Made by a program: the position numbers and the translations under genes. Below are positions 2,435 through 22,661 of a stretch of DNA of 28,111 bases, piece after piece. The first letter of the stretch is position 1. Every line of letters begins with the position of its first letter. The notes under the pieces were generated by a model. It searched no databases, was not told the DNA's origin, and was given only the letters and a program-made list of their open reading frames with translations. Source of the stretch: an uncultured Thiobacillus sp. (GTDB lineage: Bacteria; Pseudomonadota; Gammaproteobacteria; Burkholderiales; Thiobacillaceae); contig CAZEOR010000001.1 of assembly GCA_964513695.1 (NCBI GenBank), positions 1 through 28,111 on the forward strand, read 5' to 3'.

Positions 2435-3043
2435 TCACGGGTTATCGTTGCCGGGCTGACAGGCTGGATCGTCCAGCCATTTCTCGAAGGCAATCATGTC
2501 GTTCCGGCCGAAAATCCGCACGGGCAGAGGGCGGCGGGCCAGATAGGCTGGGAACGCCCGGTCCACCTGGCCCGCCTCGGCAAGTTGGGCGATATCCTTG
2601 TCCGCGCCGGGCGCGGCATGCTTGATGAGGGCCACGGCATCGGCATCGAGTACGCCGGCCAGCCATAGGGCCAGGCTGTCGGAAGTGACGTCCCAATTTT
2701 CCGGTATATCCGGGTCGTTCAGGCAAAGCTTGGTCGGCTGCCAGACTGGCGTGGCGCCCCGAGCCAGGAGTACGGCGATTTCGTCTCGACTGGCGGCGGG
2801 TTCCAGTCCGGAGGCCAGCCCACACAGCATCAGCCCATACTGTTCCATGGCGAGCAGCGCCATGCGATGGGCCATGGAATCGGAAAAACGCCAGCGGGCC
2901 TGGGCCACTCGGACCTGGTCGGCGAAGGGACCACCGCCGGGAACCAGGACAACGCGCCCACCCGCGTTGGCGACCGCGCTGAGCCAATCGGCCAGTTCCG
3001 GGGCTGTATGCAGGCTGCCGCCCAGCTTGACGACCCGGATCAA
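2435..3043 (-). CDS. Amino-acid-kinase family protein, Orf21/MfnE-like furan-phosphate kinase
   Basis: VVKLGGSL...VLVPGGGPFAD...HRMALLAMEQYG...WDVTSDSLALWLA motifs. Likely TTG start at 3043 overlapping the pabB TGA. The upstream part of the 508-aa ORF is off-frame pabB. Confidence 0.85.
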   Translation of the reverse strand: MIRVVKLGGSLHTAPELADWLSAVANAGGRVVLVPGGGPFADQVRVAQARWRFSDSMAHRMALLAMEQYGLMLCGLASGLEPAASRDEIAVLLARGATPVWQPTKLCLNDPDIPENWDVTSDSLALWLAGVLDADAVALIKHAAPGADKDIAQLAEAGQVDRAFPAYLARRPLPVRIFGRNDMIAFEKWLDDPACQPGNDNP

Positions 3044-7207: not shown

Positions 7208-8153
7208 AGCGCCCGAGCGGGGGCTGGGAACCCTGTTCCTGCCAGGTTTCCATGTCCGGGCCGCGGTAGCGGCACCAGGACTGGGGCGTCTCGTAGTTCA
7301 GGGTGTGGTGGTCGAAGCGATCCACCACGCGGGCGTTCACCACCCGCTTGAGATAACCGTAATCCAGCACGCAGCCGGTGACCGGGTCGATCCGGCCGCT
7401 CACCTTCACGTGCAGCACGTAGCGGTCGCCGTGCAGGTTGCTGCACTTGGCGGGATGGTCGGTGAGGAAGTGGGCGGAATCGAACACCACTTCCTTGCTC
7501 ACCGTGACTTCCGGGGTGTCCGGATGGAAGCGCGCCCAGACCACGGGCATGGCTTCCCGCCGCAGGAATTGGGCTGCCGCTTCGGCTTCGTCGGCGGAAG
7601 CGAAGGGCAGGAACAGAAATCCGGCATGCCGTTCGGCGGCATGGGCCAGATAGCATGCGTACCGCAAACGCTGTTCCGGCGGAGGCACCCTGGCGGGAAG
7701 CCAGGGGCCGACCAGATTGCGCTTTTGGGTGGACAGGCGATTCCTCGCCACCACCCGATGGGTGCCGGGGGCGTAGTGGTAGTCCTGGCGGAAGCAAAAA
7801 CCATAGGTGGACAGTTTGGCCAGATCCCAGAACAGCAGATCCAGCCAAGCCACCTCGCCTTCCACGTGGCACAGGCTGCCCGCTTCCCGCACCTTGCCGG
7901 CCAGGCGCAAGCCCGCCAGCACGGCCCGGGCCGCCTCGTCGGGAAGCGGACCCGCCAGGTAAGGCGGGGCCGCCCCGGCGTCCGCTTCGGCGTCCCCTTC
8001 CCCGATCCTGTCCGGAGACAGCAACAGGTCCAGGGGCAGGGTGTGGCGCGGGGCGTATTCCTGGAGGGGCAGGCCGCTGCACGCGAGCGGATGCCCGGTA
8101 TCCAGCCGCGCCTTGTCCACCAGTTCCGCGCCGCACTCCCGGCAAGCCACCAT
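7116..8153 (-). CDS. Fusion protein: N-terminal Zn-finger-like motif, unknown middle domain, C-terminal QueD/PTPS (T-fold) domain with apparent internal deletion
   Basis: ATG 8153 with GGAGAGAAGG SD, 17 nt after the fae stop. Begins CRECG...H.LAC.GL.LQEY..RH.LP.D. The C-terminal part has VSKEVVFDSAHF...KCSNLHGDRY...VLDYGYLK...RFDHHTLNY-ETPQSWCRYRG. Confidence 0.75.
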   Translation of the reverse strand: MVACRECGAELVDKARLDTGHPLACSGLPLQEYAPRHTLPLDLLLSPDRIGEGDAEADAGAAPPYLAGPLPDEAARAVLAGLRLAGKVREAGSLCHVEGEVAWLDLLFWDLAKLSTYGFCFRQDYHYAPGTHRVVARNRLSTQKRNLVGPWLPARVPPPEQRLRYACYLAHAAERHAGFLFLPFASADEAEAAAQFLRREAMPVVWARFHPDTPEVTVSKEVVFDSAHFLTDHPAKCSNLHGDRYVLHVKVSGRIDPVTGCVLDYGYLKRVVNARVVDRFDHHTLNYETPQSWCRYRGPDMETWQEQGSQPPLGRFTDPALGLSPWREALRPRVTDHARRQARPG

Positions 8154-8169
8154 GCCTTCTCTCCGCGGC

Positions 8170-8682
8170 TTAGACGTGGGCGGCGAAGGGATGGCCGGTG
8201 CTACCCTTCTTCGCCACCACTTCGGCGGCCGTGGGCGTGCCGGCGACGGCGCGCTTGATGGACTGCTTGGTGGCTTCGTAGTTGTAGTCCTGGATCTTGG
8301 CGTCGTCCTCGGCCTGCCAATGGATGAACACACCCACACTGATGAACAGGTTGTCGGCCTCGTCCATGGGAATGGTGCCGTCTTCCACGCAATCGGCCAC
8401 GGCCATGGCCACGCCGCGCTGGGCCGGCCCGAACATCTGCACCGCCTGTTTCGCGCCCTTGATGGTCACCTTGTTGAACATCATGGTGTTGGGCTTGCAG
8501 GGCAGATTGGGGGCCACCACCGCCAGCAGGCTGGTAAAGCCGTCCTTGTTGTTGACCAGGCCGTTGCAGAACGCCGTTTCGGCCGCGCTGCCGCGCGGTC
8601 CGATCAGCAGATCAATGTGGGCCACCTCGTTGCCGTCGCCCACCAGGGACTCACCTACCATTACGCGATCAATCTTTGCCAT
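8170..8682 (-). CDS. fae: Formaldehyde-activating enzyme
   Basis: [31 protein letters not shown]...[20 protein letters not shown]...GVFIHW...NYEATK. Strong AAGGAGG SD. Confidence 0.98.
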
Positions 8683-9613
8683 GACATCCTCCTTGAGTTG
8701 AAACGAAAAAAGTCGGCTCGGCTAACCAAAGGTCGCGTTCCGGCGCCGAGCCACCCACCGGTACACGTTGTGAATCGAAATCCGCCATGAGCAGGCGCTC
8801 CGCCAAGCAGGTCGCCACGGTCAGGTCAGCGCTGGTGCCGGGATTGATGCGGGCGGCTTTGAAGGCGTCATCCAGTTGTTCCAGATGGGGCCGGGCCGCC
8901 GCCCAGTCCGCGCAGCGGTCCAGTTCGGCCTGGCAGGCGGCGGCCTGGATCAGCACCGCCTCCGAGGATGCGGCGCCGTATTTGCGCAGCACATGGCTGT
9001 CCGGGAAGGCGGCCAGGAAGCCCATGAACGCGGTGGTCACCGCCTGTTCCTCGCCGTTCCAGCGGGCGCGCCCTTCGCGCAGACGGGGCAGGCCGATCTC
9101 GAACACATCGGAATAGACGTTGGTGTACTGGCGCGCGATGCGGTCCCGCGACGCCGCCTCGTGCATGGCCGCGAGCAGGGTGACGGCGGGCGGCTGGGCG
9201 ACGTCGTGGCGCTCGCTGCGGCCGAGGCCGGCGGGGTTGGCCAGGCGGATGGCGCGATACACCCAGTCCGCGTCCTCCCGGCCCAAGCCGGCCAGGGTGC
9301 GTTGCAGCCGCCGCAGGAAGGATTCATCCGGCAAGCGGCGCTGGGCGGCGTGGATCAGGGGCGCGGCCAGCAGCAGGATGCCCAGGTTGGTGTTGCAGGC
9401 CACCGTGTCCCAGGTGGCTTCCATGGCCCAGTAGACCCGCTCGCCCACCGTCAGCCCGGCGTCGCACAGGATGGGCGCGGCAACTTGGGCGCTGGCGCGG
9501 AAATCCTCCGCGCTCATGCCGTGGCCGGGGGAGTCCACGCTCACATTGCCCGGTTTCAGGGCCAGCACGTCCAGCTCGCAGGCGTGCAGGAAGGCTGCGG
9601 CGCAGGGGTTCAT
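8669..9613 (-). CDS. CitG-like triphosphoribosyl-dephospho-CoA synthase family protein (Orf7)
   Basis: [50 protein letters not shown] 9613 forms an ATGA overlap with orf5. The C-terminus overlaps the fae start by 14 nt. Confidence 0.9.
8701..8756 (-). promoter_or_regulatory. GC stem-loop followed by U-tract just upstream of the fae SD (terminator/attenuator/stabiliser-like)
   Basis: GGCTCGGC (8715-8722) and GCCGAGCC (8745-8752) are perfect reverse complements. On the minus strand the stem is followed by GAC-TTTTTT. Confidence 0.4.
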
Positions 9614-10536
9614 GCCCGCAACTCCCGGCGCGTGCGGGCGAGATGGCGGTCGATCAGATCGTCGGCCAGCATCTGGGCGATGTCGGCCTTCGTCACGCTT
9701 TGCAGGCCGCGCCAGGCGGGGATGCTGTTCACCTCCAGCACGGTCAGGCGGCCGTCCCGGTCGCGCATCACATCCACGCCGGCGTAATCCATCTCCAGGG
9801 CGCGGGTCGCGGCTTCCGCCAGGCGGTACAGCTCCGGGTCGGCGGGCGCCGGCGCGCAGGCGGCGCCCTGGGCCACGTTGTTGATCCAGGAGGCGCCCCG
9901 GCGCGTCATGGCGGCGCGGGCGGAACCGCCCACCACCAGCACCCGGTAGTCTTCCCAGCCGGCCGCTTCGTCCGAAGGGCCGACGTAGCGTTGCAGGTAA
10001 TACACGCCCTGGCAGTCGCACACCGGCGGCAGGTCGGCGGGCGTGGCCAGGCGGCGCAGGCCCTTGCCCTGGGAACCGAACAGGGGCTTCAGCACCAGCT
10101 CGTTGCCGCGCGCGCTTTCCCGCATGAGGATGCCGCGCGCCTGGGCCTCGGATTCGGCGGCCCAGGTGGCGGGCGTCGGCACGCCGGACACCTTGAGCAG
10201 GAGGCTGGTCATGGCCTTGTCCACGCTCTTCTCGATGGCCCGGGCAGGGTTGTAGACCGGCACGCCCAGCGCCGGCAGGACATGCAGGAAATCCAGGCGC
10301 AGCACCACCTGCTCCAGGCTGCCGCCCGACACCCCGCGCACGAAGGCGGCGTCCGGCAGGCGCTCCTCGAAGCCGGGGATGACGATGCCGCCCAGCAAGT
10401 CGGCCCCCTCCAGGTCCACCCGGCAATCGGCCAGTGCCACGTAGACCGCCTCGTAGCCGCGCCGGGCGAAGGCCTGCGTCAGACGCTTGCCGTGCCAGCC
10501 CGGATCGTCGGTGAAGAGGGCGATGCGGCCGGTCAT
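9610..10536 (-). CDS. RimK-like ATP-grasp glutamate ligase (Orf5; H4MPT/methylofuran glutamylation family)
   Basis: [79 protein letters not shown]. Confidence 0.9.
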
Positions 10537-11498
10537 GCGAACGAACGCTCCAGCAGTTCGGCGTTCAGCCGCCCCGCCCGGAAGCTGCGTCCCGAGGCCA
10601 GGCTGGTCACCGTCACCCGGGCCGGGGCGAACAGCAGCGGATCGATCTTATAGAAGTCGTGGCCGGCCGCCTTGAACACCTGAGCGAAGGGCTGGCCGTA
10701 GTCGGCGGAGGCCTCGCTGGGCAGGCGCTTCGCCAGATCCTCGGCGGCGGCTTCCGCGCCGGACACGAAAAGCTGTACCCGGCCGCCGAACAGGATGGCG
10801 TCGTTGGTGCGGCCCATGGCGGTGAGGAAATCCGGCGAGGGCGGGCAGAGCGGTGCCGTGCCCATGCCGTCGACGATGTGCTCCAGGGGAAAGCCGAGGA
10901 AGTGGGCCTTGTGCAGGGCCACTTCCAGCACCCGCGCCACCACCTGCACGCTGCCGGCCAGACTGGTGGTGGGGGTGAGGATGAGGGTGAGGTTCTCCGG
11001 CGCCACCTTGCACTGGTCGGCGATCTTGTCGAGCAGGGGCAGGGGCGGCGTCCTGTCGGTCTCCAGCACCAGGCAGGCGCTGGTCGAACCGTCCCGGTAA
11101 CCCAGTTCGGCGAACAGTTCCTCCTTGCCGGCAAGGGCGCGGCCGGGGCCGGAGCCGAGGGCGAAGAAGCCGCCCTTGCCCTCGCCGTGGGCCAGGCTCC
11201 AGCCCGCGTACTGGCTGCCCAGGCAGGCCAGCACCGGCTGGGCGGTGGACACCGCGAGTTCCCAGGGCCAGCCGGCGTCGGCGCCGCCGGGATGCAGGGC
11301 CACGCGGCCGAGACCGCCCAGGCATATTTCGGCGATGCGGCGGCCGGCTTCGATGCCGCCGGGGACCTGGATGCCCGCGTCGACGATGCGCGTGCCGTTG
11401 TCCTGGCGCGAGACGGCCAGGCGCAGTTCGTCGGCCTGTTCCACCAGGCGTTCCACCAGGGGAGCGGTCAGTGTGTTGATGCTGGGTCGGGTGTTCAT
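10533..11498 (-). CDS. mch: Methenyltetrahydromethanopterin cyclohydrolase
   Basis: [81 protein letters not shown]. Confidence 0.97.
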
Positions 11499-12637
11499 GA
11501 GCGGTTCGCGAGACAGGCGGAATGGATGTGCACCAGGCGTTCCAGAATGATCCGGCGCCGGGACAGGGCAAGGGTTTCCGCGCCAGCGGCGTCTTCAGCC
11601 AGGGCGCGAACGGTGCATACCGGCTCGCCGGGCGGGATGTTCACGCCGCTCCGGGGCAGGTCGGCGCACCATTCCGGCCAGGGGAAGCCCGGGGGAATGC
11701 GCACCGGCGCCGGCGCGTAGGCCACTGCGACGGCGCGCGCGCCAGCCGGTCCGGGCAGGGCTTCCGGCAATTCGCCCCGGCAGGCCCGGACGTGCAGGTC
11801 GAACAAGGCGGGCAGCGGGTCCGCGTCCCACAGTTCCAGGGTGGCGGTGGGCCGGGGATTGAGTTCCAGCAGGTTCCAGCTTTCGCCGTCCAGCATGAAA
11901 TCCAGGCCGTTCAGGCCCACCAGGCCCAGTTCGGCGGTGAGGGCGCGGGCCGCTTCCAGCGCCCCGGCTTGCACGGAGTCCGGCAGCCCGGCCAGGGCGA
12001 CTGCGCCGGAATAGGCCCAGGGCGTCGGCGCCGCCGGCGGCGCCGGCAACATGCGGTTGAAACCCACCGGGAGGATGGCGTGGCCGTTAGCGAGGAACAG
12101 CAGGGAACAGGGTGTGCCGGGTACCTGACGCTGGAAGTAGTCGTCCGGCCGCGCGTCGGCTTGCGCGGCGCGGCGGATGTGCAGGCCGCCACTGGCGCCG
12201 GCCCGTTTGACCAGCCAACCGGCGGGATCGGGGGGGGGTGTCGTCCGGGTCTCCGGATGGGGCAGGCCGAGACGGCGCGCCAGATCGAAAAAGTAGGCGG
12301 GGTCGTTGGCCCGCGCCAGGCTTTCCGGGGCGTTGCCGAACAAGGTCCGGCCCCGGGCCAGCCGTTCCAGCAAGGCCGGTTGGGACTCGAAGCCGGAACC
12401 GTAGACCAGCCCGGCGCAGCGCCCTGCCGGGCAGAGCCGGTCGGCGCTGGCCACGAGGGCGTCGGCCTCGAACTCCCAGGCGTCGTTCAGGGGCGCTTTT
12501 TCCCAGGCCCGGGCCAAATCGCAGGTGTCCCGGTCGGCGAAGGCATCCATGCCCGCCGCGTGGCCGCCGGCACGCGCCGCCGCCTGGGCCAGGCCGCGTC
12601 CGGACAGGGAAACCAGGAGGAAAGCCTCAGGCCGCAT
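11495..12637 (-). CDS. ATP-grasp protein OrfY
   Basis: [74 protein letters not shown]. Start at ATG 12637 overlapping the mtdB 3' end. Confidence 0.85.
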
Positions 12638-13529
12638 GCCCGCGCGCCTCGTCCAGGCATTCCGCGAAGCCCAGGTAGAGCGGCTTCTCCGCCGCCCGCA
12701 TCCGTTGCAGCAAGCCCTGCTGCACCTTGTACTTGACGTTGCCGATGGCCAGGGGGCCGATGGCCACGGCCTTGCCGGAGGCGGCGGCCAGGGGCGCGGC
12801 GTCGTCCATGACGCCGATGCCCTCGATGCCGGCCGGCGGCACTGCGTTGATGTCCGCCGCCACCAGCAGGCGCGAGGCCAGGGCGAGATGGGCCGGGGCA
12901 ATGACCTGCACCCCCGCCTTTGCCGTGGCGAGCAAGACTTCGCTTTCCGCGACCAGAGTGTCCTTCTCAGCCACACCGCTCGCGTCGGCGGCGGCGATGG
13001 CGGTGCCGAAGCGCGCGTTCAGAAACGTTACCGCCTCCTGGGCGCGGGCGATGCCATCATGGCCAGGGATGGTGACTTCGGCGCCGGCTTGCGCCGCCAG
13101 CGCCGCCGCGATCATGCCCACCGGGCCGGTACCGCCGAACACTGCGACACGGCGCCCGGCCAGGGTCAGCCCGTGGGACTTGGCCAGTGCCCGCTCCACC
13201 TTGGCGACCATGGCGGCCGCCGTGGTGAAGGCGCCGCTGGGATCGGCGAACACCGACACTTCGAAGGGCGGCACCATGGCCTTGCGCGCCGCCTCCAGCA
13301 TGTCGCTGGCCAACACCGCGTCGCGGCCGCCGATGAAGATGCCGGTGCGTTTCACGCCCCTGGGGCCGCGTGAGAAGATGGCATCCTGGGTGAAGCCGGC
13401 GATGTCCTCAAGGCCGACGCCAGCATAGGGGATCACCGCGTCCCAGCCCGCGTCGTAGGCCATGTTCACATCGAAGGGGCTGACCCGGGCGCCGGGCGTG
13501 GCGAAGTGGAGGAGGAAGGGCTTTTCCAT
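12627..13529 (-). CDS. mtdB: NAD(P)-dependent methylene-H4MPT dehydrogenase
   Basis: SPFDVNMAYDAGW, QDAIFSRGP, GIFIGGRD, DPSGAFTTAAAMVA, Rossmann GGTGPVG, GPLAIGNVKYK. N-terminus is MtdB-type rather than MtdA-type. Confidence 0.93.
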   Translation of the reverse strand: MEKPFLLHFATPGARVSPFDVNMAYDAGWDAVIPYAGVGLEDIAGFTQDAIFSRGPRGVKRTGIFIGGRDAVLASDMLEAARKAMVPPFEVSVFADPSGAFTTAAAMVAKVERALAKSHGLTLAGRRVAVFGGTGPVGMIAAALAAQAGAEVTIPGHDGIARAQEAVTFLNARFGTAIAAADASGVAEKDTLVAESEVLLATAKAGVQVIAPAHLALASRLLVAADINAVPPAGIEGIGVMDDAAPLAAASGKAVAIGPLAIGNVKYKVQQGLLQRMRAAEKPLYLGFAECLDEARGHAA

Positions 13530-13568
13530 GATCTGATTTCCAGTTGTCGTTATTCACCGTACCCGGCG

Positions 13569-14600
13569 TTACCCGGCAGCGGCGCGCAGGGAGCGCATCT
13601 CGCCGGTGATGTCAGCGCCCCGGTTACGGGCGGCGCAGACCATGAATTCCAGGCCCGCGTCGGCCAGTTCCACGCGGGCGGCCCGGGCCAGACCGTGGGC
13701 CGCGACTTCGGAATCGACCAGGGCGAAACCGGTGGGGCCCCAGGAGCTTTGCCCGATGCCGGCGGCGCCGTGTTCGCGCAGCCAGGCCAGGGCGCGGCTG
13801 ACGCGGGGGCTGGCATAGCGGCCGCCCTGGGCGGGGGCGAAATGATCGCCGACCAGATCCTGGATGCCGCTGACGGCGGCGCCGAAGCCCTGGATGTCCT
13901 GTTCCGCCAGGGCCGGCAGGGCGCCCATCAGGGCCAGCCGGCAGAGCTGGCCGGCGCGTTCCTCGGAGAATCTGGGCAGATCGGCGAAGGCCTGTTTCTC
14001 CTGGGCGCCGTGCAGGCCCTTGAAGCCGTGGTCGAATACCAGCAGCAGGCGCCAGGCGGCGGGGAATTCCATGCGGACGATGGCGGTGGGCGGCTCATCC
14101 TGGTCGCCGCGCCGGCCGCCGTCCACCAGGAAGCCGCCCTGGCCGAACAGGCCCAGGCCGATGCCCGAGCGGCCGCCCCGGCCCAGGGCGCGGGCGATGT
14201 CCCGGGCCGGCCAGTCGATGTCGTGCAGCCGCGCCAGCGCGGTACCCACCGCCAGGGCGAGCTGGGTGCCGGAACCCAGGCCGGCGTGGTCGGGAATGGC
14301 CTGCTCAACCCGGATATGGGCTCCGGAATGGGCTCCAGTTCGGGCACCCGATGTGATGTCTCCCGACCCGAAGCCCAACGCGGCGAGGGCGCGGCGCCCG
14401 TAGTCGGCGGCCCGCTCGGCCTGGGGCCCTTCGGCGTAAACGCCTTCGGCCGGGCTGACGGTGACCCGCGCCGCCAGTTCGTCCAGGGCCAGGCCCAGGC
14501 TGCCGAAGCGTCTGCCCAGGCCGCCATTGAGGTCGAGAAACCCCATATGCAGCCGTGCCGGAGCATGGACGGTGACGCTTTGGAACACTGCCAGGGACAT
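13569..14600 (-). CDS. mptG: Beta-ribofuranosylaminobenzene 5'-phosphate synthase (GHMP family)
   Basis: APARLHMGFLD...FGSLG, IPDHAGLGSGTQ, GRGGRSGIG, GGFLVDGG, GQSSWGPTGFA, ARNRGA. ATG 14600 has the better SD. ATG 14612 is an alternative start. Confidence 0.93.
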   Translation of the reverse strand: MSLAVFQSVTVHAPARLHMGFLDLNGGLGRRFGSLGLALDELAARVTVSPAEGVYAEGPQAERAADYGRRALAALGFGSGDITSGARTGAHSGAHIRVEQAIPDHAGLGSGTQLALAVGTALARLHDIDWPARDIARALGRGGRSGIGLGLFGQGGFLVDGGRRGDQDEPPTAIVRMEFPAAWRLLLVFDHGFKGLHGAQEKQAFADLPRFSEERAGQLCRLALMGALPALAEQDIQGFGAAVSGIQDLVGDHFAPAQGGRYASPRVSRALAWLREHGAAGIGQSSWGPTGFALVDSEVAAHGLARAARVELADAGLEFMVCAARNRGADITGEMRSLRAAAG

Positions 14601-14635
14601 GGTTTTTTCCATCGATGGGCTTGGGCAACATCAAT

Positions 14636-14651
14636 AGCAAGCCCCATGCCA
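14636..14651 (-). promoter_or_regulatory. Sigma54 (-24/-12) promoter for the mptG operon
   Basis: Minus strand TGGCATGGGGCTTGCT gives exact GG-N10-GC with TGGCA and TTGCT. Predicted +1 near 14625. Confidence 0.7.
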
Positions 14652-14669
14652 TGGGGAAATCTCCTTGCC

Positions 14670-14682
14670 AATCAAACTCCTA
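14670..14682 (+). promoter_or_regulatory. IHF-like site
   Basis: AATCAA-ACTC-CTA versus WATCAANNNNTTR, one mismatch. Lies between the sigma54 promoter and the palindrome. Confidence 0.35.
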
Positions 14683-14703
14683 GCGAGAAGCGGCGGGGCC
14701 GGC

Positions 14704-14720
14704 CGTGACACAGTGTCACG
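14704..14720. promoter_or_regulatory. Perfect palindrome CGTGACAC-A-GTGTCACG, candidate upstream activator site
   Basis: 8-bp arms. The half-site CCGTGACA recurs at 14736-14743. Located between two divergent sigma54 motifs. Confidence 0.55.
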
Positions 14721-14778
14721 AGGCTTGTGCCAGCGCCGTGACAGGAAAGCCGGCGGGAGCGAAGCACCGGGCCGCGCG

Positions 14779-14791
14779 GAAGGTATTGATT
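14779..14791 (-). promoter_or_regulatory. IHF-like site
   Basis: Minus strand AATCAA-TACC-TTC versus WATCAANNNNTTR, one mismatch. Lies between the palindrome and the rightward sigma54 promoter. Confidence 0.35.
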
Positions 14792-14832
14792 CCCCGACGG
14801 ACCGGCTCGGGTTCGTCGACTTTGCCAAGACA

Positions 14833-14848
14833 TGGCACGATCCCTGCA
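14833..14848 (+). promoter_or_regulatory. Sigma54 (-24/-12) promoter for fhcBADC
   Basis: TGGCACGATCCCTGCA equals TGGCACG-N4-(C)TGCA with exact GG-N10-GC. Predicted +1 near 14859. Confidence 0.7.
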
Positions 14849-14883
14849 TAGTTGCTCGGCCCTCTCTGGAAGACACATCGCCC

Positions 14884-16221
14884 GTGCCCGATATCACCTG
14901 TCCCTTTTGCGGTTTGCTCTGTGATGACCTGCGCATCGCCGTCGCCAATGGCCGCGCCCGTATCGAAGCGGGGGGCTGCCCCCGTTCCGAACGTCTGTTC
15001 GATGCGCCTTCGGACGGCCAGGCCCGGGTCGGCGGCCAGGTCGTGGATGCCGACGCGGCCTGCCGCGCCGCGGCGCGCATCCTCGCCGCCGCCCGCCGTC
15101 CCCTGATCGGCGGCCTGGCCTGCGACGTCACCGGCCAGCGCGCCGCCATCGCCCTGGCGGAACAGGTGGGCGGCGTGCTCGATCACATGAACGGCCGCGC
15201 CCAGTTCCGCAACATCCTGGCTTTCCAGGACGGCGGCTGGATGACCACCACCCTGTCGGAAGTGCGCAACCGGGCCGATCTGGTCCTGCTGGCGGGCACC
15301 GATGCCGCGACCTTCCCCCGTTTCTTCGAGCGCCTGCTGGCGGGCGAATCCCAGTTCGGCGAGCCGCGCCGGCGCCTCATCGCCCTGCTTCCCGCATTGC
15401 CGTCGCCGCCGCTTTCCGCCAAGGCGGAGTTGGCTGTGCCCCCGGCTCAGGAAAAGCGCCCGAGCCGCCGCCCGTGGGGGCCAAGTCGTTGTTGGGACGG
15501 CCCGGCGAACAACTTGAGCGGCGTGGATCTCGCCATCCCCTGTCCGCGCGAACGGCTCGGCGAGCTGTTCGCCGCCCTGCGCGCCCGTCTGGCCGGCAAG
15601 CGCTTGGATGCCGCGGACGTGGCCGGCGTGCCCATCGCCCAGCTCGACGAGCTGCTCGACGCCCTGCGCGCCGCCCGCTACGGCGTGCTGGTGTGGAACG
15701 CGGCGGAACTGGACTTCCCCCAGGCCGACCTGACCGTGCAGGCCATGGTGGACCTGGTCAAGGATCTGAACCGGGACACCCGCTGGTCCGGCCTGCCCCT
15801 GGGCGGCAACGACGGCGACACCTGCGCCGCCCAGGTCTGCACCTGGCAGACCGGCTATCCCCTGCGCACCGCCTACACCGCCGGCGGCCCCCATTACGAC
15901 CCGCTCCGCTACGGCACCGACAGCCTGCTGGCGAGCGGGGAGGTGGATGCCCTGGTATGGATTTCCGCTTTCGATCCGGAGCGCAAACCTCCGGCGTGCG
16001 CCCAACCGGCCATCGTCCTGGGCCGCGCCGACATGGCTTTTGCCACCCCGCCGGACGTGTTCATCCCGGTGGCCGTGCCCGGCGTGCAGCAGATCGGCTT
16101 CCTGCACCGCATGGACGGCGTGGTGGCCCTGCCCCTGGCGGCGCCCGTCACCAGCGGGTTGCCCGGCGTCGCCCAGGTCTTGGCCATGATCCGGAAGGAG
16201 CTGAACCATGCTGCGGCTTAA
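14884..16221 (+). CDS. fhcB: Formyltransferase/hydrolase complex subunit B (FwdB-like)
   Basis: ITCPFCGLLCDDL, TLSEVRNRADL, YGVLVWNA, LPLGGNDG, WQTGYPLRT, VFIPVAVPG, RMDGVVALPL. GTG 14884 inferred as start because it lies downstream of the promoter. Contains an extra segment of about 30-35 codons near 15410-15520. Confidence 0.9.
   Translation: MPDITCPFCGLLCDDLRIAVANGRARIEAGGCPRSERLFDAPSDGQARVGGQVVDADAACRAAARILAAARRPLIGGLACDVTGQRAAIALAEQVGGVLDHMNGRAQFRNILAFQDGGWMTTTLSEVRNRADLVLLAGTDAATFPRFFERLLAGESQFGEPRRRLIALLPALPSPPLSAKAELAVPPAQEKRPSRRPWGPSRCWDGPANNLSGVDLAIPCPRERLGELFAALRARLAGKRLDAADVAGVPIAQLDELLDALRAARYGVLVWNAAELDFPQADLTVQAMVDLVKDLNRDTRWSGLPLGGNDGDTCAAQVCTWQTGYPLRTAYTAGGPHYDPLRYGTDSLLASGEVDALVWISAFDPERKPPACAQPAIVLGRADMAFATPPDVFIPVAVPGVQQIGFLHRMDGVVALPLAAPVTSGLPGVAQVLAMIRKELNHAAA
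15411..15516. repeat. Palindromic insertion (three hairpins) read in-frame within fhcB
   Basis: TCCGCC-AA-GGCGGA (15415-15428). GCCCCC/GGGGGC (15438-15481) enclosing GGCTC/GAGCC. GTTGTT/AACAAC (15488-15513). Codons are atypical for the host. Confidence 0.55.
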
Positions 16222-17887
16222 GGGCGGACGCCTCTACGACCCCGCCCACGGCATCGACGGGCAGGTGCGCGACCTTTACGTGGAAGCCGGCCGCGTCGTC
16301 GCCGCGCCCGGCCCCGATGCCGTCATCGACAGCGAAATCGACCTGGCCGGCCGCGTGGTGATGGCCGGCGCCATCGACCTGCATACCCACATCGGCGGCG
16401 GCAAGATGAACATCGCCCGCGCCTTGCTGCCGGAAGACCACCGCATCGATCCGGTGCCGGCCCGATCCCTGGCGGGAGGCGGCCATCTCCACGCCGGCTG
16501 CGGCCACGCCGCGCCGTCAACCTGGACCACCGGCTACCGCTACGCCGAGATGGGCTACACCGCCTGCTTCGAGCCGGCCATGCTGCCCGCCAACGCGCGC
16601 CACGCCCACCTGGAGATGGGCGACATCCCCATGGTGGACAAGGGCGCCTACGCCATGCTGGGTAGCGACGATTTCTTCCTGCGCCTGCTCTCATCCGGCG
16701 CCGACCAGCGCCTGATCAACGACTACGTCGGCTGGACCCTGGACGCCAGCCAGGCCATGGCCATCAAGGTGGTGAACCCAGGCGGCATCTCGGCGTTCAA
16801 GTTCAACGCCCGCAACCTGGATCTGGACGAGGCCCATCCCCATTACGGCGTCACTCCCCGGCGCGTCATCCAGGCCCTGGCCCGCGCCGTGCACGAACTG
16901 GGCGTGGCCCACCCGCTGCACGTGCACGCCAGCAACCTGGGCATCCCCGGCAACGCCGACACCACTTTGGCCACCATGGCCGCCGCCGAGGGGCTGCCCA
17001 TCCACCTGACCCACATCCAGTTCCACAGCTACGGCACGGAAGGGGAGCGCAAGTTCTCCTCGGAAGCGGAACGCATCGCCGACGCCATCAACCGCATGGC
17101 CAACGTCTCGGCGGATGTGGGCCAGATCCTGTTCGGCCAGACCGTCACCGCCTCCGGCGACAACATGGCCCAACACCGCAACCGGGGCCACGCCAGCCCG
17201 GACAAGTGGGTGGTCATGGACATCGAGTGCGACGCCGGCTGCGGCGTGGTGCCCTTCAAGTACAAGGACAAGAACTTCGTCAACGCGCTGCAATGGGCCA
17301 TCGGCCTGGAACTGTTCCTGCGCGTCAGCGACCCCTGGCGCATCTTCCTCACCACCGACCATCCCAACGGCGCGCCGTTCACCAGCTACCCGCACCTGAT
17401 CCGCCTGCTCATGGACCGGGGTTTCCGCAATTCCAAGCTGGACGAGATCAACGCGGAAGCCGCGGCGCACAGCCAGTTGCGCGGCATGGAACGGGAATAC
17501 AGCCTGTACGAGATCGCCATCATGACCCGCGCCGCGCCGGCCCGTTCCCTGGGCCTGACCGATCGCGGCCACCTGGGCGCGGGCGCCGCCGCCGACATCG
17601 TGGTCTACCGGGACGATCCGGACCGGGAAGCCATGTTCGCCAAGCCGGAATACGTGTTCAAGGATGGCGAGCAGATCGTGCGCGACGGCCAGGTGGTGAA
17701 AGTGGTCAACGGCGCCCTGCACGCGGTAAAGCCCGAGTACGACAAGGGCATCGAGAAGCCGTTGAAGGACTATTTCGACCGCTACATGACGGTGCGGATG
17801 GAACACATCAAGCTGAGTGACGAGGAGGTTTGCGCCTGCGGGGCGAGCAAACTGATTCCGCACCAGTGCGGCGGGAGGAAGACGTGA
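16208..17887 (+). CDS. fhcA: Formyltransferase/hydrolase complex subunit A (FwdA-like amidohydrolase)
   Basis: GAIDLHTHIGGGK, YRYAEMGYT, IKVVNPGG, HVHASNLG, HLTHIQFHSYG, LQWAIGLE, LTTDHPNG, EIAIMTRAAPA. Confidence 0.97.
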   Translation: MLRLKGGRLYDPAHGIDGQVRDLYVEAGRVVAAPGPDAVIDSEIDLAGRVVMAGAIDLHTHIGGGKMNIARALLPEDHRIDPVPARSLAGGGHLHAGCGHAAPSTWTTGYRYAEMGYTACFEPAMLPANARHAHLEMGDIPMVDKGAYAMLGSDDFFLRLLSSGADQRLINDYVGWTLDASQAMAIKVVNPGGISAFKFNARNLDLDEAHPHYGVTPRRVIQALARAVHELGVAHPLHVHASNLGIPGNADTTLATMAAAEGLPIHLTHIQFHSYGTEGERKFSSEAERIADAINRMANVSADVGQILFGQTVTASGDNMAQHRNRGHASPDKWVVMDIECDAGCGVVPFKYKDKNFVNALQWAIGLELFLRVSDPWRIFLTTDHPNGAPFTSYPHLIRLLMDRGFRNSKLDEINAEAAAHSQLRGMEREYSLYEIAIMTRAAPARSLGLTDRGHLGAGAAADIVVYRDDPDREAMFAKPEYVFKDGEQIVRDGQVVKVVNGALHAVKPEYDKGIEKPLKDYFDRYMTVRMEHIKLSDEEVCACGASKLIPHQCGGRKT

Positions 17888-17934
17888 TGGCGGGGTGGGA
17901 TATTGAGGGCTTGGCCTTGTGGGCACGCGGGTTG

Positions 17935-18028
17935 AATCCCCCCTGTCCCCCCTTTTCCAAAGGGGGGAGTGGCTTCAGCGTTCTGCCCGGGGGTTCCCCC
18001 CTTTGCAAAAGGGGGGACAGGGGGGATT
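17935..18028. mobile_element. 94-bp MITE/REP-like palindromic element between fhcA and fhcD
   Basis: AATCCCCCCTGTCCCCCCTTTT (17935-17956) is the exact reverse complement of 18007-18028. Arms extend to 33/34 bp around a 26-bp spacer. Each arm has an internal CCCCCCTTT-N3-AAAGGGGGG hairpin. Confidence 0.7.
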
Positions 18029-18077
18029 TCTCCGCCCTTCGCTCGACCGCACCACCCACTTCCGGAACTTTCGCATC

Positions 18078-18974
18078 ATGATCATCAACGGCGTCCTCAT
18101 CGACGACACCTATGCCGAGGCCTTCGGCATGAAGGCCACCCGCATCCTCATCACCGCGGATACCCTGACCTGGGCGAAGCACGCGGCGAACGCGGCCTTC
18201 GGCTTCGCCACCTCGGTCATCGCCTGCGGCTGCGAGGCGGGCATCGAACGGGAGCTCTCCCCCGAGGAAACCCCGGACGGCCGCCCCGGCGTGGCCGGCC
18301 TGCTGTTCGCCGTGTCCACCAAGGAACTGGGCAAGCAATTGGAACGCCGCGTCGGCCAGTGCGTGCTTACCTGCCCTTCCACCGCCGTGTTCGCCGGCTG
18401 CGAGGGGGAGGAGCGACTGCCCCTGGGCAAGAACCTGCGCTACTTCGGCGATGGCTGGCAGATGTCGAAACTCCTCGCCGGCAAACGCTACTGGCGCATC
18501 CCGGTCATGGACGGGGAGTTCCTGGCCGAGGAATCCACCGGCCTGCTGCGCTCGGTGGGCGGCGGCAACTTCCTGGTGCTGGCCCGTTCCCGTGCCCAGG
18601 CCCTGGCGGCCTGCGAAGCGGCGGTGGAAGCCATCAAAGGCGTGCCCGGCGCCATCGCGCCCTTCCCCGGCGGCGTGGTGCGCTCCGGTTCCAAAGTGGG
18701 TTCCAAGTACAAGGCCCTGCCCGCTTCCACCAACGACGCCTTCTGCCCCACCTTGCGCGGCGTGGCGAAGACCGAACTGGGCCCGGAAGTGGAAGCAGTG
18801 CTGGAGATCGTCATCGACGCGGTCACCGACGCCGACATGCGCGTGGCCATGAAGGCTGGCCTGGAGGCGGTCTGCGCCATCGGCGCGGCGGGCGGCATCC
18901 TGCGCCTGTCGGCGGGCAACTACGGCGGCAAGCTGGGGCAGTTCCATTACCGCTTGCGGGAGATATTGGCATGA
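18078..18974 (+). CDS. fhcD: Formylmethanofuran:H4MPT formyltransferase (FhcD/Ftr)
   Basis: MIINGVLIDDTYAEAFGM, GFATSVIACGCEAG, TPDGRPG, RVGQCVLTCP, LRYFGDG, VGGGNF, PFPGGVVRSGSKVGSKY, AGNYGGKLG. Confidence 0.97.
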   Translation: MIINGVLIDDTYAEAFGMKATRILITADTLTWAKHAANAAFGFATSVIACGCEAGIERELSPEETPDGRPGVAGLLFAVSTKELGKQLERRVGQCVLTCPSTAVFAGCEGEERLPLGKNLRYFGDGWQMSKLLAGKRYWRIPVMDGEFLAEESTGLLRSVGGGNFLVLARSRAQALAACEAAVEAIKGVPGAIAPFPGGVVRSGSKVGSKYKALPASTNDAFCPTLRGVAKTELGPEVEAVLEIVIDAVTDADMRVAMKAGLEAVCAIGAAGGILRLSAGNYGGKLGQFHYRLREILA

Positions 18975-19771
18975 CCACCCTGACCCAGCGTGGTGGCGCT
19001 TCCGGCCGGGTGGACATGGCCGGCATCCTGCCGGAACTCATCGCGGGACTGTCGCCGGCGGACATCGCCGTCCTGACCGTGGGCCACGACGGCGCTCCGA
19101 CGCCCCTGGGCGAGTTGTTCGAGGTCCAGGCCGGCACGGCGGAATGCCTGGTGATCCGCTGCGAGCGGGCCTGCCTGGACGACCTGGGCGCTGACATGGG
19201 CGCCGGCCGACTCATCGTCGAAGGACCGGCCGGCGATTTCGCCGGACAGGGCATGAGCGGCGGTGAACTGGTGCTGCGCGGCGGCGCCGGTGACTTCGCG
19301 GCTTCCGGTATGAAGGGCGGCCTGATCCGCATCGAGGGCCGCGCCGGCGACTGGCTAGGCGCGGCGCGCATCGGTGAGCGCAACGGCATGGCCGGCGGCG
19401 TGGTGACGGTGGCGGGCAGCGTCGGCGCCCGCGCTGGCGACCGTATGCGCCGGGGCCTGATCCTGATCCGCGGCGACGCCGGCGACCACTGCGGCAGCCG
19501 CCTGCTGGCCGGCACCATCGCCGTGGCCGGCGCATGCGGAGCGATGGCGGGTTTCGGCCTGCGCCGGGGCTCCCTGGTACTGGGCCGGGCGCCGGCCGGG
19601 CTGCCCGCCACCTTCAACGATGCCGGCGTGGTGGAGTTGTCCTACCTGGGACTGCTGCATCGCCACGCGGAAACCCTGCTGCCGGGCGCGGTGCCTGCCA
19701 GCCGGCGCATGCGCCGCCACATCGGCGACCTGGCCTTCGGCGGCAAGGGAGAAATCCTGGTGGCGGCATGA
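18971..19771 (+). CDS. fhcC: Formyltransferase/hydrolase complex subunit C (FwdC-like beta-helix)
   Basis: Gly-rich repeats (GADMGAG, AGQGMSGG, ASGMKGG, GDRMRRG, GSRLLAGTI), ending GDLAFGGKGEILV. ATGA overlap with fhcD. Confidence 0.95.
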   Translation: MTTLTQRGGASGRVDMAGILPELIAGLSPADIAVLTVGHDGAPTPLGELFEVQAGTAECLVIRCERACLDDLGADMGAGRLIVEGPAGDFAGQGMSGGELVLRGGAGDFAASGMKGGLIRIEGRAGDWLGAARIGERNGMAGGVVTVAGSVGARAGDRMRRGLILIRGDAGDHCGSRLLAGTIAVAGACGAMAGFGLRRGSLVLGRAPAGLPATFNDAGVVELSYLGLLHRHAETLLPGAVPASRRMRRHIGDLAFGGKGEILVAA

Positions 19772-20310
19772 AGATGGTGTTCCTGCGCCACGGCGAATCC
19801 GCCTACAACCGTCTGGGCCGTTGCAATTCCGACCCGGCGCTGCCGGTGCCACTCACCGAGGAAGGCCGCGCCCAGGCCGACCGGGCCGCCGACCGGCTGC
19901 GGGCTCAGCCCATCGCCCGCATCTACGTGTCCCGGCTGCAAAGGGCACAGGAAACCGCCGCGATCGTCAATCTCCATCATGGTGCCGAGATCATCGTCGA
20001 TGCCCGGCTCGACGACCGCCGCACCGGCTTCGAGGGTGAATCCGTCACCGATTACCTTCAAGCCATGTCCGCCGCTCCTGATCCCTTCACCTGGAAGGCG
20101 CCGGGTGGCGAGTCCTACCGGGAGATGGTGGTACGGGTGCACGGTTTCCTCGATGACCTGGCCCGGAGCGAAGCCCCCTGCGTTTTGGTGGTTTCCCACC
20201 ACGAACCCATTCAGGCTGTGGCAGGCCGTTTCCGCGCCCTCAGCCTGTTTCAGATGTGGCAGGTCTGGCTGGACAACGGCGAGAGCCTGGTATTCGGAGA
20301 TTCCGTCTGA
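19768..20310 (+). CDS. Histidine phosphatase (PGM/CobC-like) family protein
   Basis: FLRHGESAYN, LTEEGRAQA, SRLQRAQETA, GGESY, LVVSHH. ATGA overlap with fhcC. Confidence 0.88.
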   Translation: MKMVFLRHGESAYNRLGRCNSDPALPVPLTEEGRAQADRAADRLRAQPIARIYVSRLQRAQETAAIVNLHHGAEIIVDARLDDRRTGFEGESVTDYLQAMSAAPDPFTWKAPGGESYREMVVRVHGFLDDLARSEAPCVLVVSHHEPIQAVAGRFRALSLFQMWQVWLDNGESLVFGDSV

Positions 20311-20376
20311 TCCCCGCCGACCCCCGCACCCTCGCTGCCACCCGTGTTTTCCGATGTATTGATCCCAGGAGTCCGT

Positions 20377-20814
20377 ATGTCCATGAACCCAGTGTTTTCC
20401 ACCCTGTGCGCTGTCCTTTTCTGTCACCTGGCCGCGGCCGCCGAAGTCAAGGTGGAGAGTGCCTGGGTGCGCCCCACCGCGCCTGGCCAGAAAGTGGCCG
20501 GCGCATTCATGAAGCTCACCGCTGATAGCGACATGGCCCTGGTGAAAGGGGCCTCGCCGGCGGCGAGGAGCGTGGAGCTGCATTTCATGCGCATGGATGG
20601 CGGCATGATGGAAATGCGCGAGCTGAAAAAGATCGAACTGCCCAAGGACACCACCGTCAGCCTGGAACCGGGCGGTCTGCACGTCATGCTGATCGGCCTC
20701 AAGACCCGGATCAAACCCGGCGACAAGATTCCTCTCAGCCTGATCGTGAAGGATCGCAGGGGCGGCCGCCACATCGTGCCGGTCAGCCTGGATGTGCCGG
20801 CCTCGGCTGAGTGA
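20377..20814 (+). CDS. Periplasmic copper chaperone PCu(A)C
   Basis: Signal-peptide-like N-terminus, AWVRPT, VELHFMRMDGGMMEMR, LEPGGLHVMLIG. AGGAG SD 5 nt upstream. Confidence 0.9.
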   Translation: MSMNPVFSTLCAVLFCHLAAAAEVKVESAWVRPTAPGQKVAGAFMKLTADSDMALVKGASPAARSVELHFMRMDGGMMEMRELKKIELPKDTTVSLEPGGLHVMLIGLKTRIKPGDKIPLSLIVKDRRGGRHIVPVSLDVPASAE

Positions 20815-20880
20815 GGATTACCGGCCGGCAATCCCGTTGACCCACCATCTGGAAAGCTGAATCAAACCGGCCTAGAAACC

Positions 20881-21342
20881 TCAATGCTTGCCGCCTGCAC
20901 GTGTTTCGATCCGAAATGTGGCATGGCAGGAAATGCAGTTCGACATCAACTGGCTGAGTTGTTTCAAGGCCAGGTTGGGGTCGGCCATGCTGGCTGCGTC
21001 CCGTGCCAGATCGTCAAAGCCGGTATGGGTTGCGTGGCCCAGCTTCTTGAACTCCAGGGGTAGTTTCTCGCGCAGGCCGGCGGGAACTTCATGGGCGGCG
21101 GCCATGCCGACGGACTGGGCGGCTTCCGCGACCATCCGCATATCGTTGTGGGCGGCGCCGGTGACGATCTTCTGTACACCGGAAAGAAAGGTGCGCATTT
21201 CCAAGCGTATGTGGGCGGCTTCCTCAGCTTTGAGGAGGATGGGTTTGCGCCGCTCGATGGGTTTGCTGTGTTCGTGGTCGAGTTCGGCCGCAAACGTGAC
21301 AAAGGGCGTGGCGGCCAACAGCAACATAACAAGACGATACAT
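20881..21342 (-). CDS. Class II (four-helix, c'/c556-like) cytochrome c
   Basis: Signal peptide and a single C-terminal CISCH haem motif. GAGG SD before ATG 21342. An alternative ATG at 21357 overlaps the bioA stop. Confidence 0.8.
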   Translation of the reverse strand: MYRLVMLLLAATPFVTFAAELDHEHSKPIERRKPILLKAEEAAHIRLEMRTFLSGVQKIVTGAAHNDMRMVAEAAQSVGMAAAHEVPAGLREKLPLEFKKLGHATHTGFDDLARDAASMADPNLALKQLSQLMSNCISCHATFRIETRAGGKH

Positions 21343-21353
21343 TGAAACCTCTT

Positions 21354-22661
21354 TCATATCTGAGCTAGGAGCTCGTGGGTCACGTGAGCCATCAGGACCA
21401 TCTCCGGTTCTTCGATGACATAGGGGGGCATGAAATAGACGGTGTTGCCGATGGGCCGTATGAACAGGCCACGGGCCAGGGCGCGTTGGTGGAAATCCCG
21501 GGCGAAATGGGGCGCCGCATGTTGTACGTCGAAGGCCCAGATCATGCCGGTTTGGCGGAAATGCCGAACGCTGGGATAGGCGGCGATGGCTGCACTCAGC
21601 AGCTCCGTGAAGCGAGCAGCCTTCATCCGGTTGGCAGTGATGACATTGTCCTGCTCGAATATGTCCAGCACAGCCAGGGCGGCACGGCAGGCCAGGGGGT
21701 TGCCGGTGTAGGAGTGGGAGTGGAGAAACCCCCTGGCGCTGGCATCGTCGTAGAAGGCGGCATAGACGGCGTCCGTGGTGAGGACACAGGAAAGCGGGAG
21801 GTAACCGCCGGTAATGCCTTTTGACAGACAGAGGAAGTCCGGTTTGATACCGGCCTGCTGACAGGCGAACAGGCTACCTGTGCGGCCGAAGCCGACTGCG
21901 ATTTCGTCGGCGATCAGGTGGACGCCGTATTCATCGCACAAAGCCCGCAAGCGGGCCAGATAGGCGGGGTGGTACATGGCCATGCCAGCGGCGCCCTGGA
22001 CCAGCGGTTCGAGGATGACGGCGGCGGTGGAGTCGGCGCACTCGGACAGGAAGGCTTCCGCATGGTCGGCGCAGCGTAGGGCATAGGCCTCGGCGGATTC
22101 ACCCGGCTCTGCCAAGCGCCAGTCCGGACTGGGCAACTGGTGGGACTGGCGTAGAAGCGGTGCGTAGGTGTCCTTGAACAGGGCGACGTCGGTAACCGAT
22201 AGAGCGCCTAGCGTTTCGCCGTGATAGCCGTTTTGCAGGCTGACAAAATTGGTCTTCTGGGGCCGGTCCCGGTTGCGCCAGTAGTGGAAGCTCATCTTCA
22301 GGGCGATCTCGGTGGCGCTGGCGCCATCGGAGCCATAGAAGGCGTGGCCCAGGCCGGTGAGCCTTCCCAGCCGTTCCGAGAGTTCCACCACCGGGGCATG
22401 GGTGCAGCCGGCCAGGATGACGTGTTCGATCTTGCCTAGTTGATCCGTGATGGCCGAGTTGATGCGCGGATTGGCGTGGCCGAACAGATTCACCCACCAT
22501 GAGGAAATGCAATCCAGGTAGCGGCGGCCATCGTAGTCGATGAGCCAGGGGCCTTCACCCCGCTCGATGGGCAGGGGTGGCATCCGCTCCAGATGTTTCA
22601 TCTGGGTGCAGGGATGCCAGAGAGCCGCCTGGGTACGGTTCAGCCAATCGGCATTGGACAT
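21354..22661 (-). CDS. bioA: Adenosylmethionine-8-amino-7-oxononanoate aminotransferase
   Basis: LWHPCTQM, ISSWWVNLFGH, DGASATEIALKM, GYHGET, DEIAVGFGRTG, SKGITGGYLPL, HSHSYTGNPLAC, YFMPPY. Confidence 0.95.
   Translation of the reverse strand: MSNADWLNRTQAALWHPCTQMKHLERMPPLPIERGEGPWLIDYDGRRYLDCISSWWVNLFGHANPRINSAITDQLGKIEHVILAGCTHAPVVELSERLGRLTGLGHAFYGSDGASATEIALKMSFHYWRNRDRPQKTNFVSLQNGYHGETLGALSVTDVALFKDTYAPLLRQSHQLPSPDWRLAEPGESAEAYALRCADHAEAFLSECADSTAAVILEPLVQGAAGMAMYHPAYLARLRALCDEYGVHLIADEIAVGFGRTGSLFACQQAGIKPDFLCLSKGITGGYLPLSCVLTTDAVYAAFYDDASARGFLHSHSYTGNPLACRAALAVLDIFEQDNVITANRMKAARFTELLSAAIAAYPSVRHFRQTGMIWAFDVQHAAPHFARDFHQRALARGLFIRPIGNTVYFMPPYVIEEPEMVLMAHVTHELLAQI

Follow-up and report, generated by a model that had tools for sequence, protein, structure and literature searches.

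A putative bidirectional sigma-54 control region with a shared enhancer between the two arms of a tetrahydromethanopterin gene cluster in an uncultured Thiobacillus

The stretch of DNA analysed here (hereafter the window; 28,111 nucleotides (nt) from an uncultured Thiobacillus sp., contig CAZEOR010000001.1 of assembly GCA_964513695.1) carries two divergent arms of a gene cluster for tetrahydromethanopterin (H4MPT)-linked formaldehyde oxidation, and the single 283-nt mptG/fhcB intergenic region between them holds two sigma-54-type promoter motifs, each facing outward. Most methylotrophs, and many of the non-methylotrophs that have it, rely on the H4MPT-linked pathway as their main means of oxidising and detoxifying formaldehyde; the transcriptional control of this pathway is, to our knowledge, largely unknown. 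The gene assignments that the initial annotation had given to both arms are borne out by NCBIfam and Pfam matches, which together with the gene calls of the source contig define two transcription units:

2435-14612, minus strand: predicted transcription unit of 13 tightly packed genes (mptG arm)
14884-20814, plus strand: predicted transcription unit of fhcB, fhcA, fhcD, fhcC, a histidine phosphatase gene and a PCuAC copper chaperone gene (fhcBADC arm)

The minus arm begins with mptG, mtdB, an ATP-grasp gene, mch, an mptN-like RimK ligase gene, a CitG-like gene and fae, and continues with a PTPS-like gene, a 224-residue open reading frame (ORF), another ATP-grasp gene, an MfnF/hydantoinase-like gene, a PabB-like gene and an amino-acid-kinase-like gene that ends at position 2435. 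The product of mptG (13569-14600/14612; the start common to relatives is ATG 14600) scores above the cut-off for the beta-RFAP synthase family, and that of mtdB contains an Mpt_N domain. The intergenic gaps of the minus arm measure at most 39 nt, terminator-like sites within it are not above chance, and we infer that it forms one operon, as we do the extent of the plus-arm operon, which starts with fhcB at GTG 14884. The closest genome is a Thiobacillaceae metagenome-assembled genome (MAG), whose FhcB is 75% identical.

The two motifs in the intergenic region are as follows:

14636-14651, minus strand: predicted sigma-54 (-24/-12) promoter of the mptG arm, TGGCATGGGGCTTGCT, with the start site predicted near 14625
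14833-14848, plus strand: predicted sigma-54 (-24/-12) promoter of the fhcBADC arm, TGGCACGATCCCTGCA, with the start site predicted near 14859

Both 16-mers lie where the initial annotation had placed them and on the strands it had named, 181 nt apart, and the exact GG-N10-GC spacing that it had claimed holds for the minus motif (GG at 14650-14649, GC at 14638-14637) and for the plus motif (GG at 14834-14835, GC at 14846-14847). Each motif precedes and faces the first gene of its arm, at the distance of a short leader. The distance of some 25 nt to plausible start codons stands only for the predicted start sites (~14625 and ~14859), which give 25-nt leaders on both arms because the genes start at ATG 14600 and GTG 14884; measured from the motif ends, the distance is 35 nt. 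Compared with TGGCAY-N5-TTGCW, the minus motif has no mismatch and the plus motif has one, CTGC for TTGC at -12, which makes for a weaker element. The pattern TGGCAY-N6-TGCW occurs twice on the two strands of the entire window, at these two motifs only, and dinucleotide shuffles of the window (n = 100) gave a mean of 0.36 matches, with at least two matches anywhere in 4 of the 100. Only this strict form is informative, because the loose pattern TGGC-N8-TGCW has 11 matches in the window. No sigma-70 consensus promoter was found in the intergenic region or anywhere in 2200-21500, and an Rfam scan of the window returned no RNA family. A terminator-like hairpin at 14656-14642 was considered and rejected, as it consists of the palindromic CCATGGCATGG core of the -24 element and the hairpin is not kept in relatives.

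Conservation in related mptG-fhcB intergenic regions had been named in the initial annotation as a check of the two promoters, and both motifs are indeed kept in orthologous regions in which the intervening and internal sequence has diverged. In a first scan, 17 related loci of full length each carried the two motifs, with their relative positions unchanged. Two wider scans, one built on an FhcB alignment and one on the sensor domain of the activator described below, gave counts that cover the 80 loci listed in each; among the matches listed in the FhcB scan, the promoter pair occurs in 26 assemblies, from Thiobacillus, Thiobacillaceae, Gallionellaceae, Parasulfuritortus and several Burkholderiales and Rhodocyclaceae MAGs, and FhcB in these relatives is 55-75% identical. 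About 48 other fhcB loci listed (Gemmatimonadota, Methylophilaceae and other beta- and gamma-proteobacterial MAGs), which serve as a negative control, are without the motifs, apart from three stray matches at unrelated positions. The idea that the arrangement is general to all H4MPT organisms was therefore rejected, since Gemmatimonadota, Methylophilaceae and many other MAGs do not have the motifs ahead of fhcB.

The consensus drawn from 26 distinct orthologous sequences reads TGGCAtgg-N3-TTGCT for the mptG promoter and TGGCAyG-N4-cCTGCw for the fhcB promoter, and such conserved -24 and -12 elements around a free spacer are the pattern expected of sigma-54 promoters. In an alignment of 15 intergenic regions (mean column identity 47%), invariant columns are confined to the two promoters and to four elements between them, i.e., AATCA plus CTAG, a palindrome, a GTGACA half-site, and GAA-N4-TTGATT. 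Within the promoters, the invariant columns of the plus motif are those of TGGCA and TGC, and those of the minus motif are its -12 and -24 elements. Between the end of the plus motif and fhcB there are 36-67 nt in 20 of the 22 loci of Thiobacillaceae type, and 86-133 nt in the remaining two and in four outlying MAGs.

The elements between the promoters suggest a shared upstream activating sequence (UAS) flanked by putative sites for integration host factor (IHF):

14704-14720, strand-symmetric: putative enhancer (UAS), perfect 17-bp palindrome CGTGACACAGTGTCACG, with the core GTGACA-N3-TGTCAC at 14705-14719
14738-14743, plus strand: third half-site GTGACA, 18 nt to the right of the palindrome
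14670-14684, plus strand: IHF-like box AATCAA-N4-CTAGC, between the UAS and the mptG promoter
14779-14791, minus strand: IHF-like box AATCAATACCTTC, between the UAS and the fhcB promoter

The palindrome CGTGACACAGTGTCACG is the only inverted repeat with arms of at least 6 nt between the promoters, and its half-sites are invariant in 15 of the 15 aligned loci; in the third half-site, which reads G(T/G)(G/T)ACA across the alignment, the G, A, C and A columns are invariant. Measured from its centre, the palindrome is separated from the T of the mptG TGGCA by 60-63 nt in 22 of 24 loci and by 72 nt in two Burkholderiales MAGs, and from the fhcB TGGCA by 106-122 nt in 23 of 24, which corresponds to about -87 relative to mptG and -146 relative to fhcB, within the range of ~80-150 nt expected of a UAS. 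When 185,579 species genomes were scanned for the palindrome followed by a 48-60 nt spacer and TGGCA-N7-TGC, 53 matches came back, against about 14 expected by chance on our own estimate, and 25 of them are mptG/fhcB intergenic regions. The same palindrome, in the form GTGACACTGTGTCAC, stands at the same spacing from a sigma-54 promoter in Salinisphaeraceae/Spectribacter (L198, L205, L217, L228), upstream of an acetyl-CoA synthetase gene, and in Solimonas (L230, L232), upstream of a small 105-residue ORF; these sites suggest an enhancer type common to related activators with other regulons.

As for the two IHF-like boxes, the AATCA of the left box is invariant in the alignment, and WATCAA is found 18-19 nt from the TGGCA of the mptG promoter in 17 of 26 loci. 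The right box matches WATCAA-N4-TTR but for the last base; 14 of 26 loci have WATCAA at a distance of 29-42 nt from the fhcB TGGCA, and TTGATT and GAA are conserved in the alignment. IHF may bind at both WATCAA boxes, tentatively so at 14670-14684, where the TTR part of the consensus reads CTA.

The initial annotation had noted that sigma-54 promoters require an enhancer-binding protein, and had proposed a search for co-occurring activators of the NtrC family. No enhancer-binding protein gene is found inside the window; walking the contig located one just outside it, ~3.2 kb to the left of the window start and in the same H4MPT cluster. The protein has 662 residues and Pfam matches to GAF, PAS (weak), Sigma54_activat, AAA_lid_14 and HTH_8 (MimR_N is also among the precomputed matches), and contains a Walker A motif, GETGTGKE, and the GAFTGA loop. 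Its gene comes first in an H4MPT/methanofuran cofactor operon, where it is followed by a PTPS gene, a dihydromethanopterin-reductase-like flavoprotein gene, a dihydropteroate-synthase-like DUF6513 gene, a DUF447 gene and mfnB, the 3' end of mfnB reaching into the window at 168-668.

In the Thiobacillus group, contigs with fhcB also encode orthologues of the sensor domain that are 75-92% identical, and orthologues at 47-60% identity still head a flavoprotein-DUF6513-DUF447-mfnB series in many beta- and gamma-proteobacteria, among them Burkholderiales MAGs, Pelomicrobium, Thiorhodococcus and Ca. Thiodiazotropha. On annotated plasmids, the gene also lies inside H4MPT clusters of Azoarcus sp. KH32C and Paraburkholderia phymatum STM815 and close to H4MPT, fae and formate dehydrogenase genes of Ca. 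Thiodictyon syntrophicum; the only name it bears in these records is 'sigma-54-dependent Fis family transcriptional regulator'. Among the matches listed, the activator was found in 20 of the 27 assemblies with the promoter pair versus none of the 48 without it. Homologues from Steroidobacteraceae (46-50% identity) were rejected as members of the regulon; they probably serve other regulons, because their flanks are without H4MPT genes.

The best full-length NCBIfam model for the activator is DhaR, at 297.5 bits versus a cut-off of 551, and no equivalog model passed; the sensor domain matches that of DhaR in 4LRX, the only solved relative, with E = 1e-4. The nearest named homologue found is EatR of Pseudomonas aeruginosa (PA4021), 45% identical over 650 residues, i.e., over the full length. 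By sequence, the protein is a member of the EatR/AcoR/DhaR-type family and an orthologue of no named regulator. The two proteins share the GAF-PAS-AAA+-HTH_8 architecture, and the EatR gene is divergent from its sigma-54 target operon (eat/eutBC). The EatR target region, between eatR and the aldehyde dehydrogenase gene (L243 3700-3830), contains the palindrome GTGACACTCTGTACC (GTGACA-N3-TGTAC) and a TGTCAC half-site; because it carries so similar a palindrome, the cluster activator likely binds the palindrome between the two arms, and the recognition sequence seems to be a family trait. The EatR palindrome lies ~97 nt upstream of the promoter TGGCCCGGCCCTTGCT, unlike the 60-63 nt observed here, and a single sigma-54 promoter is seen there. 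EatR also differs in its pathway (ethanolamine/acetaldehyde) and gene context, and by synteny the cluster activator is no EatR orthologue.

A second back-to-back pair of sigma-54-like motifs occupies the gap between a SCO1-like gene and the activator gene (L023 3633-3958, ~5.2-5.5 kb to the left of the window start), with these features:

L023 3681-3666, minus strand: SCO1-facing motif CGGCACGCTTCCTGCT, TGGCATGnTTCcTGCw in relatives
L023 3926-3941, plus strand: activator-facing motif TGGCGTGGATATTGCT, TGGCGyGGATATTGCT in relatives
L023 3734-3748: degenerate palindrome GGGACAGTTTGTCTC, G[G/T][G/T]ACA-N3-TGT..., centred 60 nt from the SCO1 promoter

This double-motif arrangement is kept in relatives. 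Because the same layout precedes the activator operon, cofactor synthesis and positive autoregulation seem to belong to the regulon as well. In T. thioparus DSM 505 (L049 4251-5147, minus strand) and T. denitrificans DSM 12475 (L039 4264-5118, minus strand), the SCO1-like gene is followed by folE2, which encodes GTP cyclohydrolase IB, a pterin-precursor enzyme; in the window's contig, folD stands there instead, after a 345-nt gap.

Related arrangements are present on two plasmids. In Azoarcus sp. KH32C, plasmid pAZKH carries TGGCCCGGAGCTTGCT before mptG, with GTGACACTGTGTCCC centred 62 nt upstream. On the same plasmid (L187), a formate dehydrogenase operon, not fhc, is divergent from mptG, and TGGCACGTCGCTTGCG and TGGCACGTTCGATGCA stand upstream of an xoxF-like pyrroloquinoline quinone dehydrogenase gene and of the activator gene, respectively (28974-28989 and 19658-19673). 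In P. phymatum, pBPHY01 has the activator orthologue inside its H4MPT cluster and CGGCACGGACCTTGCT directly upstream of fhcB. Published expression data touch the latter locus: fhcA (Bphy_6505) shows a log2 fold change of -3.5 in nodules of an rpoN mutant, where it is listed without comment (PMC5979394 Table 3), and it is listed as induced in bacteroids (PMC5748707).

The initial annotation was not aware of sigma-54 control having been described for such clusters, and this agrees with the full-text literature searched, in which sigma-54 control of H4MPT clusters is absent and, more broadly, no regulator or promoter for them was found (subscription-only papers lay outside its scope). Full-text literature on rpoN in T. 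denitrificans yielded nothing useful. Sigma-54 promoters, shared enhancers and GAF-type activators are well known; their proposed link to H4MPT-dependent formaldehyde oxidation was not met in the literature searched.

Taken with the comparative data, these features make it likely that the intergenic region is a bidirectional sigma-54 control region with a shared enhancer, through which a cluster-encoded EatR-like activator would drive both arms. The palindrome GTGACA-N3-TGTCAC and the GTGACA half-site would form one enhancer between the two outward-facing promoters, to which the EatR/AcoR/DhaR-type protein (GAF-PAS-AAA+-HTH_8) is proposed to bind. Once the sensor domain is triggered, the AAA+ ring would contact the closed complexes of sigma-54 RNA polymerase at both promoters, probably aided by DNA bending at the two WATCAA boxes, a role that IHF may play. 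Both arms would then come on together, the H4MPT-dependent one-carbon (C1) transfer and cofactor genes (mptG-mtdB-mch-fae onward) and fhcBADC. The parts of this scheme differ in strength: that both motifs are functional sigma-54 promoters is very probable, and that the cluster-encoded protein is what activates both of them is fairly likely. More tentatively, and with less than an even chance of being right, the activating signal may be formaldehyde or a close derivative, by analogy with EatR and from the pathway controlled; EatR activates its sigma-54 promoter on acetaldehyde, an intermediate, rather than on ethanolamine (PMC5821096).

Among other explanations, one accepts both sigma-54 promoters and assigns them to another activator, for example a global one such as NtrC, so that the cluster protein would serve its own cofactor operon alone. 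Cross-activation of sigma-54 promoters is possible, the binding of the cluster protein is itself deduced, and seven assemblies with the promoter pair have no activator orthologue among the matches listed. We nonetheless think this improbable, since there is no NtrC-type site between the promoters (the best candidate differs at 5 of its 12 positions) and no NifA site of the form TGT-N10-ACA either, the sole conserved inverted repeat resembles one in the EatR target region, the degenerate palindrome recurs beside the activator gene at the same 60-nt spacing, and the cluster activator and the promoter pair co-occur.

An explanation that we hold to be similarly unlikely is that only the mptG promoter works, the fhcB motif being weak or silent and fhcBADC being transcribed from an unrecognised promoter. 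It draws on the mismatch to TTGC at the -12 element of the fhcB motif, and on the fact that the distance to the UAS is fixed for the mptG promoter only, varying over 106-122 nt for the fhcB promoter. Against it, TGGCAyG and cTGC of the fhcB motif vary little or not at all across 26 distinct sequences with a variable spacer, no other promoter-like block is conserved in the alignment and no sigma-70 consensus is present, and fhcA of P. phymatum is lower in the rpoN mutant (PMC5979394). Finally, that the 16-mers are not promoters at all, being sites of another regulator or chance resemblances kept for unrelated reasons, is very improbable: the start sites are predicted ones and GC-rich genomes give many loose GG-N10-GC matches (11 in the window), yet the only two matches to the strict motif in the window are both in this intergenic region and in the right orientation, the conservation of the motif follows exactly the -24/-12 pattern with a free spacer, the distance to the start codons fits, the cluster encodes a GAFTGA activator, and the motifs are absent from the 48 control loci.

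Several points weigh against the bidirectional control region with its cluster-encoded activator. Support for it in this organism comes from comparative genomics, not experiment, and the counts of activator and promoter co-occurrence are phylogenetically non-independent. The -12 element of the fhcB promoter is CTGC, not TTGC, and the IHF-like boxes depart from the consensus in its TTR part, with no match to them in 9-12 of 26 loci. No rpoN gene lies on the 53.6-kb contig, no search aimed at rpoN having been made, and the rpoN effect in P. phymatum, observed in non-fixing nodules, could be indirect. Autoregulation of the activator from its own motif is uncertain in this lineage because the start site predicted for that motif coincides with the Shine-Dalgarno sequence or lies beyond it, and the sensing of a ligand is not guaranteed, because it is protein partners, not a small ligand, that control DhaR.

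The proposed layout has counterparts in known systems. In the formate regulon of E. coli, the divergent hyc and hyp operons have sigma-54 promoters, with FhlA sites between them and IHF. The Thiobacillus region resembles hyc/hyp in its two outward-facing sigma-54 promoters around one intergenic enhancer, in a GAF activator for a one-carbon compound and in a probable need for bending; it differs in the activator family (the FhlA score is far below the DhaR-type match), in the UAS sequence, in its target, the H4MPT pathway, and in its signal, which is putative here. The divergent sigma-54 promoters of E. coli zraP/zraSR, with shared ZraR sites, likewise offer a back-to-back pair, activator sites in between and autoregulation of the activator operon, whereas ZraR is a two-component response regulator for metal or envelope stress and the cluster activator is without a receiver domain. 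MmoR is the sigma-54 activator for soluble methane monooxygenase. In Methylobacillus flagellatus, Mfla_0343 adjoins xoxF, a case of sigma-54 control in C1 metabolism (PMC9988556), and FhlA is mentioned in the literature as a sigma-54 activator (PMC6540204). Like Mfla_0343 and MmoR, the cluster activator is a sigma-54 activator encoded beside genes of C1 oxidation; unlike it, these two target genes of methanol or methane oxidation, and the fhcB loci of Methylophilaceae are without the motifs.

Several further observations concern the genes of the two arms and their surroundings. FhcB (14884-16221) reaches 281 bits versus an NCBIfam equivalog cut-off of 327.8, with the match split in two stretches, and is thus taken as a divergent subunit B; its N-terminal CPFCGLLCDD motif is conserved. 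The segment 17887-18078 is either a 190-nt gap between fhcA and fhcD or contains a 53-residue N-terminal extension of FhcD from GTG 17919; matches to the FhcD family profiles begin only at residue 54-61, and the contig gene call has 298 residues. Two coding-looking ORFs of 316 and 119 residues (836-1786 and 1956-2315, plus strand), with high GC3, separate mfnB from the amino-acid-kinase gene and are without a Pfam or NCBIfam match. By tblastn, matches to the longer were confined to the two closest relatives (L027, L029) and those to the shorter to L027, a distribution that suggests a lineage-specific insertion into the H4MPT cluster. The PCuAC gene (20377-20814, plus strand) ends the fhc arm and the SCO1/SenC gene (L023 3072-3632, minus strand) lies opposite the activator gene; copper-chaperone-type genes thus edge both sigma-54 units, and a link to a formaldehyde-producing copper enzyme is a candidate idea. 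To the right of the window are the atp operon, parAB and gidAB, a typical origin-proximal neighbourhood, and an IS110-family transposase gene lies at the left end of the contig (L023 30-1103).

A sigma-54 promoter is silent without its activator, and sulfur-oxidising autotrophs such as Thiobacillus would therefore hold the 19-gene module, its cofactor synthesis genes among them, off until a signal arrives, which could be formaldehyde from methanethiol or other methylated compounds; the pathway thus looks tightly inducible. The regulon proposed here is a concrete one, with two promoters, one 17-bp palindrome and one activator gene, and its cultured and sequenced hosts include T. thioparus DSM 505, T. 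denitrificans DSM 12475, Azoarcus sp. KH32C and P. phymatum STM815, for which an rpoN mutant exists. In a wider proposal, which we offer as possible although it falls short of our firmer conclusions, the cluster activator may be a dedicated master regulator, responsive to formaldehyde or methylene-H4MPT, of the entire H4MPT module in many beta- and gamma-proteobacteria. Its targets, on the same tentative footing, may comprise the C1-transfer enzymes, the Fhc complex, H4MPT and methanofuran biosynthesis and the activator itself, all reached through sigma-54 and one palindromic enhancer type. Its range may, again with some doubt, extend over Thiobacillus, Azoarcus, Paraburkholderia, purple sulfur bacteria and lucinid symbionts. 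If the effector is formaldehyde, the activator-promoter pair would be a candidate for a positive-acting formaldehyde biosensor, and the master regulator, if true, would be the missing transcriptional regulator of the pathway and a natural formaldehyde-activated expression switch.

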